A stretch of 64,000 nt of DNA from a virus: the IMG/VR virus record IMGVR_UViG_3300035494_000146. One strand, 5' to 3'. The notes below the pieces were generated by a model that worked only from the letters and a program-made list of their open reading frames with translations, was not told the origin of the DNA and ran no database searches. The position numbers and the translations under genes are program-made. Position 1 is the stretch's first letter, and every line of letters begins with the position of its first letter. Shown in pieces: positions 43,719-50,460 of this stretch.

Positions 43719-45155
43719 ATGGATTGGTTAACGTTTTATCTGCTCAATGTGGATAAGTCGGTAGTGTCTAAACTCCGGCCAGTGACCACCCTCGACACCT
43801 TCGAAGGTGCCACGAAAAACTTTCATTCAGAAGGTCTCTACTCCACCACCACTTTTGGTCCTGTAGGTAGCGAGCAGCGCGACCTGACATACTCGTACAT
43901 CGATGTTAACATCGACATTATCTCTCCGGCGATTGCCTTGACGCTGTTCGAACTGAAGCGCCTGTATAAAGAGGTGATGAGTGGGAAACGGTACGCGGTG
44001 TGGGACGAAAAAGAAAAGGACTTCCACCCGGCCGCCCCAGGCGACGCGGGGGCGGGGACAGGGTACAGTTTCTTTATCAGTAAATTTCACGACCTCACAC
44101 CGAAGGAAACCGCCAGCAACGACCGTAAGGAGTCGATTAACCTCCTTAACAAATTCCGATCGATCGCACTCGGCCGATACGTATTGGTAATGCCAGCCGG
44201 CTTGCGTGATTTGGAAGTTAAGCCAGACGGACAAGAACAAGAATACGACATCAACCCGTTGTATCGTAAACTGCTCTCTGTCAGTAAAACCATCCCCAAT
44301 GTCGGTAACAAAAACAACCCCCTGCTAGATAACGCCCGGTGGCGTCTGCAGGAAACGTTTTGTGAGATCTATAAGTACTTCTTCGAGTACCTGGATGGTA
44401 AGAAGGGCGGCATTCGTGGCAAGATGACCTCACGACGTATCTTTAACGGTACGAGAAACGTGATCTCCTCCATGGATGCCTCTAGTCCCGTGATGGACCG
44501 GGAAGACGAGATTCGTCCCACCGACACCCTGATGGGGATGTATCAGGGGATGAAGTCGTTGCTACCGGTGGCGATACACGCGGTCCGTACTCGCTACCTG
44601 CCACCAGTCGACGCAGGTAACGGGGCACTATACCTTATCGACCCGAAATCACTAAAACGCGACATGGTGATGGTGTCGCCGGAAGACTACGACCTGTACA
44701 CCACCGACGAGGGGGTGGAGAAGCTCATCACTGACTTCCACCACACAGAAGACAAACATCAACCGTTGAAGGTTGACGGCAGATACATCGCCCTGATCTA
44801 CGATGATGGTAAACAGTTCCGGGTATTTCACGATATTCAGGAATTCCCGGAGACACTTGATCGTTCGAAAGTGAGCGGCATCACGTACGCTGAGTTGCTG
44901 TATTTGAGCGGCTACGATAAGTGGAATGACTATTTCACCATGGTCACCCGCTACCCCGTAACTGGTCAGGGCAGTACGTACTCCTCTACTATAAGATTGA
45001 CCACCACTGCCAGAACCAAGATGAAGTGGGAGCTGGATGCGGACTGGGAAACACGAAAGACAAAACCGGCCATCGATTTCCCAGATCGTACCGTAACTGA
45101 ATTTGTTACCTCTATGGCACCACACCCGAGCAACCTGGTGGAACTCGGTGCTGAT
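43719..45155 (+). CDS. rpoC: Virion RNA polymerase beta' subunit (phiKZ gp180-like), exon 1
   Basis: VLVMPAGLRD, GKKGGIRGKMTSRRIFNGTRNVIS, RYP motifs of beta'; ends ...ELGAD before the intron; start ATG 43719. Confidence 0.9.
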
Positions 45156-45624
45156 TAACTGTATCTGTAAAAGATGCCCTAGTCCCACTGGGGAGTAATT
45201 CCTAGTTGGTAACCTCCTTAATTGCTGGAAGATGCTAAAGTCCAACACACAACAACGTGGTCCGAAAGGGCGAGCGTGATTGTAGCCGAAAGGCGGAAAA
45301 AAGTCAAACGTCTCGCCTTGGAGACGGGTTGGAATGACCTACGCTAACACATAACAAGCGACGGCTGAGAAGTCCTCGCGCTAAGGGTCGATGCAATGCT
45401 TAAATCAGCAGCTGATTCCCTAACGTCTATTGACCACGGGACGAGTTCAACGACTAACCGGTAGCGCGGTGTAGAGCAGCAAGCCAATGGCTGTTCGAAA
45501 TAGGAGGCCCCTCACCGAGGGTGATAAGATAGTCTAGTATCCACCTGTAATGGGTGGGAAGTTCGGGTCGTTGGGAAACGACTGTCGAGAACTGTGTCGG
45601 GGCTGCGTCCGACATGAATGCACG
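45156..45624 (+). ncRNA. Group I self-splicing intron (IA-like, ORF-less, 469 nt) in the vRNAP beta' catalytic motif
   Basis: Exon ends in U (GAT) and intron ends in G; P1 GAU|UA with UAGUC (45180-84) gives a U-G pair at the splice site; P2 hairpin 45187-45206 with GUAA loop; P AATTGCTGGAA 45220-30; Q AATCAGCAGC 45403-12; R GTTCAACGACTA 45445-56; P3 CCTCCT/AGGAGG; P7 GACTA/TAGTC (45530-34); removal restores GADFDGD. Confidence 0.95.
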
Positions 45625-45798
45625 TTCGATGGTGACACTGGATCTGGTGATTCCGTCTACACCGACGAAGCACTGGAAGAAAACCGCAAACAAATGCAAA
45701 AGGCATCGTTCTGGGTGAATGGTGACCGTCTAAAGATTGATGTCAACACCGACTTGATTGAACGTACCATGTTTAACCTGTTGGCTGACCCTGAATAA
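45625..45798 (+). CDS. rpoC: Virion RNA polymerase beta' subunit, exon 2 (FDGD...; spliced product ~536 aa)
   Basis: Begins TTC GAT GGT GAC = FDGD, completing the catalytic ADFDGD motif in frame. Confidence 0.92.
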   Translation, partial: FDGDTGSGDSVYTDEALEENRKQMQKASFWVNGDRLKIDVNTDLIERTMFNLLADPE

Positions 45799-45826
45799 TT
45801 CTTACCGATAGGCAAGGAAGGACAGA

Positions 45827-48800
45827 ATGTTACTTCGCAACTTTAACCGACAGTTTTCAGTGATTCGGGTCGAACAGTTCGGCAATCCACGTATCGCATC
45901 ACTGTCGAAGCTCGAACTACCCAGGGGTAGTATTCTGCACTACATCCCGACCGATGGGGTGTCTGAAATTGGCCCGCCGCAGAATCACCCGATTTTGGAG
46001 AAGGCGGAAAAACTGATTCAGGTTAACCACGTACTGCACCTGGCCGAACATGGCACTGTCGGCCGACCCCGTCGTGTGGAGACCGCCATTGCTCGCGACG
46101 TGATTCAATATCATCGGATCAACAAACGTCTGCGGATGATGCACAATACCAAATTGGTGGAGCGTGACGATCGGGTCATGATGGTGGAGAACTATGCTCC
46201 GTTGCGTCGGGTTTATCGTTACCCCGAAACGTTGATGTCGTGGTATGAGCGCTGGTACAACTTGTTCCTAACTGTGGTTACCCAGCTGGGCCACGACAGC
46301 TCTACTTTCCAACGACAGAACTACCTACTGTTGACCATTCCGACCAAGTTGCCGTCCATTGCTAAGTTGCGTAAGGCGGAGAAGCGACGCGACCTCAACA
46401 CCCTCGACAGTATGCGTGACGATAACGTACTGTTCTTCCTGGAACTATGGACTTGGTTTGGTCCTAACCGTGACCGCGGCATGTTGGGTAAACTCACGGC
46501 AGAGCAACTCAAGCGGATCAACGTGATCGTGTCGTTCAATGATCGATTCATCAACATGAACTTGGGTGAGTTGGATTTCTGGCGTAAAGGCGACACCGGT
46601 GGACGCATTGATCCTATCCAAATGCAGCGGCGTCTGTACAAGTCCATCATCCAACTAGCAACGGAGCAATTACCGGAAGAGGTGAAGTCCACCCAACCGG
46701 TGTCTGTACGTGAGGATGCTGATGGCGAGATCGTCGAGACCGAGCTGCTGGAAGACAGTGGTGAATTCGATCCGCCTGAACTTACTGATGGTGACGATCG
46801 CTCGGTTGAAGAGGAGATTGAAGCGTTTGATGAGCAGGTTGACCTTGACGAAGAGGAAGATTTTGAGATAGTCCAGACTACCGATGAGGTCGAGGTGGAG
46901 GATGTCAAACACACCACTATCACTATTGACAACGGCATCAAGCGAGAAAGCCTGCGTTATATCGAGGCCGGCCAACTGACCACCAAGGAATACCAGCGGA
47001 TGCTGGATCAGTCAGAAAGCTACAAGGCCATCCCTAACCCGTTTGGCGAGGGGACGCTGGCTGATATGCTGGAGGTCACGTCCGAGGAAGTGGCGTTGGA
47101 GGAAGAGTTGTTGCTCGAGGATCCGGTATTGTTGGATCCTGGTCTAGCGAAGAGTACAGTCACGAACCTCAACCGCAAATACATACAGAAAGTGCTGCCG
47201 AAAGACATTTGTAGTTCAATCATGGCTGTGCAGAAAATGGGCATAGTTGTCAATGACTACAAAGCCGAGGAAGTAGTGGACGCTGCCAACGGTCTGGTAT
47301 ACCACACCCTCAAAATCACTCCGGTGAAGGGTGAGTCGTCCACGATCCATTTCCCCACACCACTATTTGATGATGAAGGGTATTGGACAGCGAACGACGT
47401 GCGCTACACCATGAGGAGGCAGCGGGTCGACCTCCCTATTCGAAAGACTGCGCCAGACACCGTCGCACTCACTACATTCTACAATAAGAACTTCATTCGG
47501 CGTAGTGACAAGGTGGTGAATGATTGGCCCAAGTGGCTGACCAACAACATCATCACTGCAGGCATTGATGCCAGTAACCTGAGCGTGAGCGATTTGCGGT
47601 TTGCTAATGTTTTCGACCCTACTGTGGAGTTACCACGCGACTACACTTCCGTATCGCAGCGACTCTCCGGTTTCACCTCACAAGGCATCGTGTTTAACTT
47701 CGATTACAGCACGGTGGATAAAACCTTCGGTGTGGAGAAGGTGGCCGAACTGAAAGAGCAGAAGCTGGTACCTGTCGGTAAATCACGTGGCGCCACTTAC
47801 GTCATGGATCCGTTTAACATGATGTACAAGGAAGACGGCAAAGGCCTGACCGAAGTGGGGACTCTCGCAGAAGTGCTTGGCTTCGATATCAGCAAGGCGC
47901 CGAAAGAACACAGTGAACTGTCGATGATGGGGAAGGCAATTCCAACCGGGCTCGTGATTGCGTACTACTACGGGCTGGAGAGTGCGCTGAAGGAGTTCGG
48001 CGTCGACTATCGTCTGGCGGAAGCAGGTGAGCGTGTCAAGGCCGATGAAGGCGATCTGATAATTCCCTGCAGAGACGGTAAATACGTTATCACCTACGCA
48101 AACCAGGAGCAAGCACTGATCTTCAATGGTCTGCGTCATTACGTCAAGATCACGCGCGACTTCTCCATGGAAGACCTGAACCGTCAAGACGTGTATCTGA
48201 ACCTGATTCAGAAAGACGGGTTGACGGTTAGGTATCTGCTGGAGCTGGATCAGATGGACGCCATGTACGTGGATCCAATCAGTGAACGCATCTTGAAAAA
48301 GATGGGCGAACCGACCACGTTTAGGGGACTTATCCGACGTGCGAACGAAATGTTGACCTATGACCAACATCCGCACGAGACCGATATGGACAGCATGCAT
48401 ATCTACGGACATCAGCGCATTGCTGGGGCAGTGTATGGGCAGTTGGTTAAAGCAATTCGAGACTCCCGCAATAAACCAGGTAGTCGGAAGAAGATCATCT
48501 TACCGCCCAACCAAATCTGGAGCGCGATTGCACAAGACCCGTCGGTAATGCCGGCATCCGACTCCAACCCAATTCAGTCTATCAAAGAAGCTGATGTCGT
48601 GACTTTCGGCGGGACCGGCGGACGCTCTCGCAGATCGATGGTGAAGAGGACGCGGGTGTTCGGTAAGAACAACCTGGGAGTGATCTCCGGCGACAACGTT
48701 GACAGTGGTGACGTTGGCATTACCGAGTACCTGACTAACAACCCCATCTTTGATGATGTTGATGGGTTGATTAAACCGCTGGACCGTGACAACTTGGAGG

Positions 48801-48856
48801 TGAACCAATACCTGTCATTTTCTAACCAGTTAGCACCGGGCATTATGCACGACGAT
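45827..48856 (+). CDS. rpoB: Virion RNA polymerase beta subunit, N-terminal/main piece (phiKZ gp178-like), exon 1
   Basis: RRQRVDLPIRK, NPIQSIKEADVVTFGGTGGRS, GVISGDNVDSGDVG, PGIMHDD beta motifs; AAGGAAGG RBS. Confidence 0.9.
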
Positions 48857-49326
48857 GGACATAAACGTCGCCTCTACGAGTGATTGTGGAGTGATAACTT
48901 TCTTAATTGCTGGAACACCCTAAAGCTCAACTCGCTACAGCATGGTCCGAAAGGACGAGTGCGATACGCGGTCGAAAGACAGAAAAAAGTCAAAGGCTTC
49001 CTGAGGAGGCCAGTTGAGATGCCCTACGCTTAAAGGAGTGCCTGTCGGGAGACGCGCCGCTAAGGGGTTATGCAATGGACAATCGAGCAGCGAAGCTCCT
49101 ACCGGCGTCGGGAGACGCACCAAGGAGAACGTTCAACGACTAGAGGGGTCGCCCTCGTACTGGCCAAGTGGCTAGGAAAGAGAAAGCTCTCATCGTAGCG
49201 CATTAGGTGCGCTTGTTAAGGTGAGATGATAATATAGTCTGGACATCTGGGGAAACCCCAGAGCAGCGTCGCCGACCGGGAGGTCCGTGATAGCGGGAGT
49301 GATTAACGACCACTCTGAACATTTCG
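48857..49326 (+). ncRNA. Group I self-splicing intron (IA-like, ORF-less, 470 nt) in vRNAP beta
   Basis: Exon ends GAT; P1 CGAU|G with CGUCG (48866-70) gives a U-G pair; P AATTGCTGGAA 48905-15; Q AATCGAGCAGC 49081-91; R GTTCAACGACTA 49131-42; P3 CTTTCT/AGAAAG; P7 GACTA/TAGTC (49235-39); P9.0 GGA/UUC before terminal G 49326; removal gives HDD-GKRASF. Confidence 0.93.
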
Positions 49327-50460
49327 GGAAAACGAGCAAGCTTTGTTGGAATTCAGCATGGCTCAGGCATGTCTGCCAACGGATATGAAGTCACCGCATT
49401 CCGTACTGGGGCGGAGAAGTTAGTGGCCCACCGTACGGGGAGCAGTCAGGCAGTAGTGGCTGCAGAGTCCGGTAAAGTCGTCGAGATGGATGAGTATGGT
49501 ATTACCGTGGAATACGACACCAAGCCCAAGACCACTAAGTCATACCCTGTCGGAAAAACCTTCGGTCGACATGAGGGCGGGGTCTTCCCGCATGTGTTGG
49601 TTCCTAATGTTAAGGTTGGTCAGAAGTTCGCCAAGGGTGATGTACTGACCTACAACGAGAAGTTCTTCGAGGTCGATCCTGTTACGCCTAACCAGGTCAA
49701 CTGGAAAGCGGGAGTGATGGCTAACGTTGTCCTACTGGAAGGCACCGACACCCTTGAAGACTCCAGCGCGATCTCGCCAGCTTTGTCGGAGAAGCTAACC
49801 ACACAGATCTCCAAGGTGAAACATATCACGGTGCGTTTCGATCAAGCCATACATGACATGGTGAAGGAAGGTAAGAAGCTGACCCCCGACACTGTACTCT
49901 GCGTGATCGAAGATGCGGTCTCTGCTGGTATGCAAGGCTTCAGCGATAAATCCATTGAAACGCTACGTAAGTTGGCAGCTAAGGCACCTCGCGCCAAGCT
50001 CAACGGGGTGGTGGATCGTATCGAGATCTTCTACCACGGCGATTATGAAGACATGTCGGAATCCGTTCGGGCACTAGCAGAGTGGGGCGATCGTAAGCGT
50101 AGGCGGGAAGCCAAACGCAGTCCCAAACGGCTGGCGGAGCATGGTCGGGTTGACAGCTCTCTGCGGATTGAAGGTAATCCTGTAGAGCTGGAGACTATGG
50201 TCATCCGTCTGTATATGACGCAGGAAGTGCCGGCCATTGGTGGCGACAAGGCCGTGTTTGCCAACCAGTTGAAATCAACCTTTCGACGCGTCATGGTTGG
50301 CGTTAATGAAACCGAAACGGGTCTACCTATTGACGCCATCTTTGGACGCAAATCGGTCGATGCGCGGATCGTGTTGTCAGTGTACCAGATCGGCACCACG
50401 AACAAGGTTTGTCAACTGATCTCTGAGGGCGCACAAGCGATTCTGAAAGAGGGCGGTTGA
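49327..50460 (+). CDS. rpoB: Virion RNA polymerase beta subunit, exon 2 (spliced product ~1387 aa)
   Basis: Frame open upstream of ATG 49369 to GKRASFVGIQH; contains LEDSSAIS and GDKAVFANQLKSTF...PIDAIFG (beta GDK...HGNKG-equivalent). Confidence 0.9.
   Translation, partial: GKRASFVGIQHGSGMSANGYEVTAFRTGAEKLVAHRTGSSQAVVAAESGKVVEMDEYGITVEYDTKPKTTKSYPVGKTFGRHEGGVFPHVLVPNVKVGQKFAKGDVLTYNEKFFEVDPVTPNQVNWKAGVMANVVLLEGTDTLEDSSAISPALSEKLTTQISKVKHITVRFDQAIHDMVKEGKKLTPDTVLCVIEDAVSAGMQGFSDKSIETLRKLAAKAPRAKLNGVVDRIEIFYHGDYEDMSESVRALAEWGDRKRRREAKRSPKRLAEHGRVDSSLRIEGNPVELETMVIRLYMTQEVPAIGGDKAVFANQLKSTFRRVMVGVNETETGLPIDAIFGRKSVDARIVLSVYQIGTTNKVCQLISEGAQAILKEGG

Follow-up and report, generated by a model that had tools for sequence, protein, structure and literature searches.

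The window analysed here, a 64,000-nt stretch of IMG/VR virus record IMGVR_UViG_3300035494_000146, carries two group I introns in genes encoding RNA polymerase subunits. Intron A interrupts a vRNAP beta'-like gene (phrog_2986), with a flanking ORF encoding an RNAP subunit, and intron B interrupts a vRNAP beta-like gene (phrog_3148), for which the profile match covers positions 2-1051 and resumes past the intron gap at positions 1065-1422. Neither intron contains an ORF. The sequencing runs containing window DNA were solely tar-pit and hydrocarbon metagenomes, and the RNA runs listed had 4-6% of sampled words in common with it. Intron B was at the gathering score of the generic Rfam group I model (RF00028, 50 bits), while intron A fell below it because of its large P5 and P7.1/7.2 insertions, yet was aligned full-length over P1-P9. 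In the Rfam alignment, the P7 5' strand and P3' of both introns are separated by an additional 34-42 nt. Extra sequence at this P7.1/P7.2 position is typical of subgroup IA and the introns were assigned as IA-like by inspection; they have this insertion instead of the features of subgroup IC1 and thus fall outside the latter. The features of both introns are listed below, where R1 denotes a covariance model built from 35 phage introns, all from outside the window.

45171..45557, plus strand, group I ribozyme core of intron A (RF00028, 32.2 bits, E 1.7e-5)
45241..45333, plus strand, copy A of the P5 extension domain (sequence, fold, R1 match of 69 bits at 45229-45313, pair counts)
45241-45246 with 45328-45333, plus strand, P5a of copy A
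45249-45283, plus strand, hairpin A of copy A
45285-45294, plus strand, hairpin B of copy A
45296-45303, plus strand, A-rich strand of copy A
45304-45308, plus strand, UCAAA of copy A
45309-45326, plus strand, hairpin C of copy A
45337..45388, plus strand, arm 2 of the P5 three-way junction of intron A (11-nt-type GAAA receptor ACC-UACGC ... GCUAAG-GGU; asymmetric internal loop in the fold)
48843..49263, plus strand, group I ribozyme core of intron B (RF00028, 50.5 bits)
48926..49018, plus strand, copy B of the P5 extension domain (sequence, fold, R1 match of 64.4 bits at 48914-49002, pair counts)
48926-48932 with 49012-49018, plus strand, P5a of copy B
48934-48969, plus strand, hairpin A of copy B
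48971-48980, plus strand, hairpin B of copy B
48982-48989, plus strand, A-rich strand of copy B
48990-48994, plus strand, UCAAA of copy B
48995-49011, plus strand, hairpin C of copy B
49022..49067, plus strand, arm 2 of intron B (receptor motif CCC-UACGC ... GCUAAG-GGG)

A first-pass annotation had described two 93-nt copies of a multibranch domain inside P5 of these introns, each formed by a closing stem and hairpins A, B and C that were kept by compensatory changes, and this description held. The sequence bears out both copies, and the Rfam group I alignment agrees with their placement: cmscan revealed in each intron a P5 loop enlarged by ~190 nt, with the 93-nt domain between the P5 5' and 3' strands, which is also consistent with the P4-P5 fold of intron A. 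Minimum free energy folds of both copies recovered the closing stem and all three hairpins (z-scores -3.2 and -4.75). When the two copies were aligned with a third hairpin-C-bearing copy from an IMG/VR contig (L071:3008-3096), 97.5% of the cells paired, compared to 29-39% with the partners slid, and both sides had changed in 12 of 27 pairs, including three of six in hairpin C; copies A and B are paralogues of one genome and hence non-independent samples in these counts. The invariant linker GAAAAAAGUCAAA (45296-45308 and 48982-48994) and the trailing AUG(A/C)CCUACGCU were likewise present as described, and CGAAAGNNNGAAAAAA occurred in the window at only two sites, both within the domain copies, against 0.06 expected by chance.

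Independent support for the structure came from the 35 other introns underlying R1, in which 86.7% of the cells paired versus 28-37% when slid and double changes were observed in 19 of 22 pairs. This model recognized copy A with 69 bits (E 3.8e-13) and copy B with 64.4 bits (E 4.2e-12), leaving the P5a 3' strand unaligned since hairpin C is inserted in front of it. R1 also matched a third copy of the domain in the DNA-polymerase intron of the same phage, intron 2 of nrdE in Staphylococcus phage Twort (49.6 bits), the gp178/gp180 vRNAP intron of Pseudomonas phage phiKZ (38.1 bits) and 93 sites in 100 IMG/VR loci. BLAST added phages Goslar, Miami, ACP1 and pAEv1810 as well as Thomasclavelia phage TR-TP1, where the match overlaps an annotated tape-measure CDS. 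Without hairpin C, the domain thus occurs in introns of RNA polymerase, DNA polymerase, nrdE and tape-measure genes of phages with both Gram-negative and Gram-positive hosts. The group I introns of T4, SPO1 and PhiPA3 were not matched by R1, and when genome_contigs was scanned for the pattern of the family motif, nearly all matches were due to chance, with a clear R1 match in one of 80 loci, a Lachnospiraceae MAG. The family consensus is a three-way junction: P5a is followed by a long hairpin that ends in a GNRA loop and contains two conserved internal loops (5'-CA/GA-3' and 5'-UR/RAG-3'), then by a short hairpin whose GAAA loop is invariant, and finally by the A-rich strand. The window copies are four-way junctions.

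The covariance-model search had been set beforehand as the test of whether the domain is a widespread, ordinary P5 element, and the matches across phages largely indicate that it is; its wide recovery in other phage introns means that it is not special to those of the window. We did not find a paper naming or describing this P5 extension, and GISSD and a 2014 review of bacterial introns provide subgroup lists in which it is undescribed, so that the label "ordinary" rests on distribution and motif content and not on a published assignment. The signature of P5a, hairpin A, GAAA hairpin, A-rich strand and subsequent receptor arm serves as an annotation mark for a large family of phage group I introns, to whose members the generic Rfam model assigns scores close to or under its threshold (32-51 bits among the introns scanned).

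The likeness of the two window copies could in principle result from nothing more than a recent duplication or gene conversion between co-resident introns, with no selected structure. In arm 2 as well as in P9 and the 3' tail, intron B matches this phage's DNA-polymerase intron at 92-100% identity, but it shares hairpin C and the upper hairpin-A stem with intron A, a mosaic that points to exchange. However, every helix was kept by compensatory changes, the structure is maintained across at least 35 divergent introns, and covariation throughout the family contradicts such an origin as the whole explanation, which we regard as very improbable.

The trailing AUG(A/C)CCUACGCU proved to be the 5' half of arm 2, a side arm following directly after the domain, which in intron B has a nearly identical counterpart in this phage's DNA-polymerase intron. 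Both this arm and its receptor motif are conserved across the family; among 37 distinct receptor arms, the core UA-x-G-S ... S'-CUAAG was retained and the flanks covaried. Sequences with the GAAA hairpin B carried a structurally framed 11-nt receptor arm in 45 of 57 cases, compared to only three of 53 sequences without this hairpin, two of these three being parsing errors (raw counts that ignore phylogeny). Both window introns follow the pattern and combine a GAAA hairpin B with an 11-nt-receptor side arm. When folded alone, arm 2 was no more stable than shuffled sequences (z -0.9 and +0.75), and its support is comparative, not thermodynamic.

We consider it probable that the domain is the distal part of the P5 peripheral extension that defines this family and serves as a self-organizing folding and stabilizing module. 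The identity of the motifs and their co-occurrence suggest that hairpin B would dock its GAAA loop into the 11-nt receptor of the adjoining side arm and thereby lock the P5 junction. The A-rich strand may form A-minor contacts as does the A-rich bulge of P5abc, and the GNRA loop of hairpin A, again by its motif, may reach another helix. Together these contacts would hold the P4-P6 scaffold such that the core could fold without protein.

Among the functions offered by the first-pass annotation, a tertiary-folding aid fits these data, whereas a ligand or protein sensor and a co-regulation of both vRNAP subunits are unsupported. The proposal of a riboswitch-like module that senses a ligand and gates splicing of both vRNAP subunit mRNAs drew on the invariant, unpaired purine-rich nucleotides on a covarying scaffold and on the precedent of a natural allosteric group I ribozyme in Clostridioides difficile, which is mentioned in PMC3984707. 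The unpaired bases are indeed conserved, but they correspond to standard motifs (GNRA/GAAA loops, an A-rich strand and half of an 11-nt receptor) that account for their conservation without a sensor, and the modules are gained and lost as a tetraloop/receptor pair. A check against Rfam for another RNA family yielded RF00028 alone at E<=1 in 44800-49600 and no known aptamer family. The same domain without hairpin C also resides in nrdE, DNA-polymerase and tape-measure introns, in unrelated genes of phages that infect widely different hosts, which speaks against co-regulation of the vRNAP subunits. The known allosteric ribozyme, moreover, has its aptamer 5' of the ribozyme and not within P5. Taken together, ligand sensing appears exceedingly improbable, and the domain points to no new regulation of phage RNA polymerase.

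The feature setting the window copies apart is a 22-nt insertion consisting of UCAAA and hairpin C, which was encountered in only three introns, the two in the window and the one in L071. Against this phage's DNA-polymerase intron, the 22 nt at 48990-49011 stand out as a clean insertion, the neighbouring sequence being 92-100% identical. The stem of hairpin C covaries, its loop is different in each copy (GCCUUG, UGA and GAAA), and the 13-nt strand GAAAAAAGUCAAA is identical in all three. All three introns reside in vRNAP genes, two at the beta' site (window and L071) and one at the beta site (window). For hairpin C, rarity is established within IMG/VR only; a metagenome scan for the linker GAAAGNNNGAAAAAAGUCAAA produced, among the matches listed, A-rich chance matches and one true match, the contig already found in IMG/VR. 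A visual search of the rest of the introns for a sequence that could pair with UCAAA identified UUGAC in intron A only, and this candidate was dropped.

Confinement to vRNAP genes and the identical linker could indicate that UCAAA and hairpin C, with or without the A-rich strand, form a docking site specific to vRNAP introns for a protein such as a splicing factor of phage or host origin, a protein of the homing-endonuclease or maturase type, or an RNA-handling factor of phiKZ-like jumbo phages, and L071 carries HNH and LAGLIDADG ORFs. On the other hand, the loop and stem sequence of hairpin C are unconserved, the window introns have no ORF, other lineages carry different, unrelated hairpins at the same junction, and shared ancestry explains the identity of three copies, two of which lie in one genome with signs of exchange. 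We therefore consider such a docking site very unlikely. The four-way variant with GAAAAAAGUCAAA and hairpin C, so far found in vRNAP introns of phiKZ-like jumbo phages only, might also have been selected because it binds a phage factor or a metabolite and so couples the splicing of both vRNAP subunit mRNAs to the stage of infection, which we judge highly unlikely.

Under the preferred reading of a P5 folding arm, UCAAA and hairpin C would be a lineage-specific 22-nt decoration that converts the three-way into a four-way junction, with hairpin C probably providing an extra stacking helix or being nearly neutral. The identity of GAAAAAAGUCAAA exceeds the conservation that a neutral spacer needs and counts against this reading, as does the location of all three hairpin-C copies in vRNAP genes. 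The domain is the usual add-on of its intron family plus one rare extra hairpin, and only this hairpin with its UCAAA linker is unusual. The family as a whole forms a stepwise series from a minimal form to a tetraloop/receptor-pair form and an extra-helix form, a tidy natural system for the study of modular RNA folding.

The C. difficile tandem of c-di-GMP-II riboswitch and group I ribozyme, with the aptamer 5' of the ribozyme, is alike in that a structured RNA is attached to a group I intron, and the C. difficile element affects splicing. Its aptamer belongs to a recognized riboswitch class, whereas the phage domain is internal to P5, consists of standard tertiary motifs and matches no aptamer. 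A minimal class of the extension, with no GAAA hairpin B, receptor arm or hairpin C, is found in Twort nrdE intron 2, which carries an annotated HNH endonuclease ORF, and in the phiKZ gp178/gp180 intron, whose host gene is, as in the window, one for virion RNAP. Common to these two and the window copies are P5a, a hairpin A that keeps the internal loops and ends in a GNRA loop, and the A-rich strand leading back to P5a. The introns of Goslar, Miami, ACP1, pAEv1810, TR-TP1 and ~35 IMG/VR contigs exhibit the full three-way-junction form with receptor arm and strong covariation; in contrast to the window copies, none has UCAAA and hairpin C.

The first-pass annotation had seen no match to P5abc, but the topology is P5abc-like. 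In P5abc of the Tetrahymena thermophila LSU intron (IC1), P5a is followed by two hairpins and has an A-rich strand on its 3' side, and the GAAA tetraloop of L5b docks into an 11-nt receptor located in J6a/6b of P6. The phage family consensus likewise has a P5abc-type three-way junction (P5a/P5b/P5c) with the A-rich strand 3' of the hairpins, extends P5 in the same order of elements, and employs a GAAA tetraloop and 11-nt receptor; both systems are expected to stabilize P4-P6. In contrast to P5abc, however, the receptor resides on the P5 side arm directly after the domain instead of in J6a/6b of P6 (as far as a non-exhaustive search of P6 indicates), the GAAA loop caps the short second hairpin, the host introns are IA-like with the P7.1/P7.2 insertion and without IC1 peripherals, and the window copies carry a fourth helix. 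The likeness considered here is one of topology.

Both introns were recovered as full-length alignments to the Rfam group I model:

45171-45557, intron A, in the beta'-like vRNAP gene, 32.2 bits
48843-49263, intron B, in the beta-like vRNAP gene, 50.5 bits

Both introns lie in multisubunit RNA-polymerase genes of the jumbo-phage type, which match phrog_2986 and phrog_3148, respectively, with Vibrio phage pVa-21 as the nearest phage. Neither intron contains an ORF, and in the Rfam alignment both exhibited an insertion at the P7.1/P7.2 position. Among public sequencing runs, tar-pit metagenomes contained the DNA of the window at full word share and a hydrocarbon metagenome did so in part, while no RNA run exceeded 6% of the sampled window words.

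The two 93-nt segments described in the first-pass annotation as a covarying domain within P5 were located exactly at 45241-45333 (copy A) and 48926-49018 (copy B), each as part of a ~190-nt insertion between the two P5 strands in the Rfam alignment. Single-sequence folds reproduced the closing stem as well as hairpins A, B and C (z-scores -3.2 and -4.75). The compensatory changes were confirmed in an alignment of both copies with a third from IMG/VR contig L071 (IMGVR_UViG_3300004097_000040), in which 12 of 27 pairs were altered on both sides and 97.5% of cells paired, compared to 29-39% with partners slid. The P5 stem and junction pair 45231-45240 with 45395-45401 in intron A and 48916-48925 with 49074-49080 in intron B; they read GCUAAAG ... 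AAUGC in intron A, whereas intron B shares CCUAAAG ... AAUGG with most of the family. In both introns this stem and junction themselves look like a split 11-nt receptor. L9 is GUAA in intron A (~45547-45550) and GAAA in intron B (~49248-49251). These differences in L9 and P5 hint at matched L9/P5 docking variants.

The domain, initially noted as common to the two vRNAP introns, was found not to be special to them. When the introns were searched against phage genomes with BLAST, matches to its 5' half turned up in Goslar, Miami, ACP1, pAEv1810 and Thomasclavelia phage TR-TP1, the last overlapping an annotated tape-measure CDS, and a pattern scan of IMG/VR yielded ~35 distinct introns with one common layout. 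This layout consists of CCUAAAG, an 8-bp P5a, RCUACAACG-UR and a 4-bp stem with GNRA loop and return stem, followed by RAG-CGUGAAUGY, a GAAA hairpin of 3-4 bp, GAAAAAA, the P5a 3' strand and AUG. With the window left out, 86.7% of cells paired in 35 introns (28-37% when slid) and double changes were present in 19 of 22 pairs. A covariance model built from these 35 introns (R1) matched both window copies (69 and 64.4 bits), Twort nrdE intron 2, the phiKZ gp178/gp180 virion-RNAP intron and 93 sites among 100 further IMG/VR loci, while the domain was not found in T4, SPO1 and PhiPA3, which also have group I introns.

The phiKZ intron (186396-186717) lies between gp180 and gp178, which encode virion RNAP subunits, and contains gp179 as an internal ORF. 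Since its P5 extension is the minimal form of the same domain, the vRNAP genes of phiKZ-like jumbo phages distant from each other repeatedly host this intron family. Several IMG/VR contigs (L337, L373, L375, L054 and L045) carried two to three R1 matches within a few kb, indicating that phage genomes commonly carry more than one member of the family. The phage studied here has a third group I intron outside the window (G000:C1:28292-28379; locus L068, ~1405-1900), which splits its DNA-polymerase gene (phrog_3011) at profile positions 468/469 and carries a standard three-way domain without hairpin C, likewise matched by R1.

Sorting ~110 distinct family members by what separates hairpin A from the P5a 3' strand resulted in three classes:

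Class 1: A-rich strand alone (UUUGAAAA-like), P5 closing straight after P5a; includes Twort and phiKZ
Class 2: A-rich strand plus hairpin B, capped by GAAA, plus a second arm at the P5 junction
Class 3: class 2 elements plus UCAAA and hairpin C

Arm 2, the second arm, bears a classic 11-nt GAAA receptor (UAUGG/CCUAAG, UAUGC/GCUAAG or UACGC/GCUAAG) framed by covarying pairs. The AUG(A/C)CCUACGCU reported to follow the domain is indeed present and represents the junction together with the 5' half of this arm. Structurally framed receptors were far commoner with hairpin B (45 of 57 sequences) than without it (3 of 53, two of these three being parsing errors), although the counts lack phylogenetic independence. 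Such joint appearance of GAAA tetraloop and receptor is what a tertiary clamp predicts. In some members hairpin B is replaced or supplemented by other extra hairpins at the same junction (L342:1159-1275, L358:1999-2101, L413:2601-2698 and L406:6828-6922).

The domain is most likely a peripheral module that folds and stabilizes P4-P6. The GAAA loop of hairpin B would probably dock into the arm 2 receptor, the A-rich strand may make A-minor contacts like those of P5abc, and the GNRA loop of hairpin A would dock into a further helix. The sensor role suggested in the first-pass annotation received no support: no aptamer family in Rfam matched, the host genes of domain-bearing introns are mutually unrelated and the conserved bases are accounted for by standard motifs.

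The linker plus hairpin C form occurred only once more in IMG/VR, on L071. The intron there (L071:1900-4350) follows a beta'-like ORF (phrog_2986) and precedes a beta-like ORF (phrog_3148) as in the window, with an HNH ORF upstream and a LAGLIDADG ORF downstream of the ribozyme core, and is probably an orthologue of intron A. Intron B and the DNA-polymerase intron were 92-100% identical in arm 2, P9 and the 3' tail (48857-49326 versus L068:1400-1900), intron B differing by a clean 22-nt insertion of exactly UCAAA plus hairpin C, while the upper stem of its hairpin A, its linker and its hairpin C correspond to those of intron A. Intron B thus looks mosaic, which suggests recombination or gene conversion within one genome; the co-resident introns have probably swapped parts. 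The hairpin C stem covaries and each of the three copies has a different loop (GCCUUG, UGA and, in L071, GAAA), while a 13-nt strand is identical in all three, which may reflect common descent of related copies. Hairpin C could conceivably be a protein dock, the one observation in favor being that all three copies reside in vRNAP genes. A tolerated or mildly useful decoration fits better than a recognition element, given the clean indel, the variable loop and the unrelated hairpins at the same junction in other lineages. This junction is a hotspot of lineage-specific decoration.

Introns with the minimal form have long been public in phage genomes (Twort nrdE, phiKZ), and no published name or analysis of this P5 extension was found in the literature searched. 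A 2025 survey described phage IA2 introns as heterogeneous and the role of their peripheral elements as unclear (PMC11878797). Tetrahymena P5abc shares the element order of the phage domain (P5a, hairpin, hairpin, A-rich strand), whereas the location of the receptor differs, as does the intron subgroup, the phage introns carrying the P7.1/P7.2-position insertion. The four-way form in the window belongs among the P5abc-type peripheral domains, as a variant.
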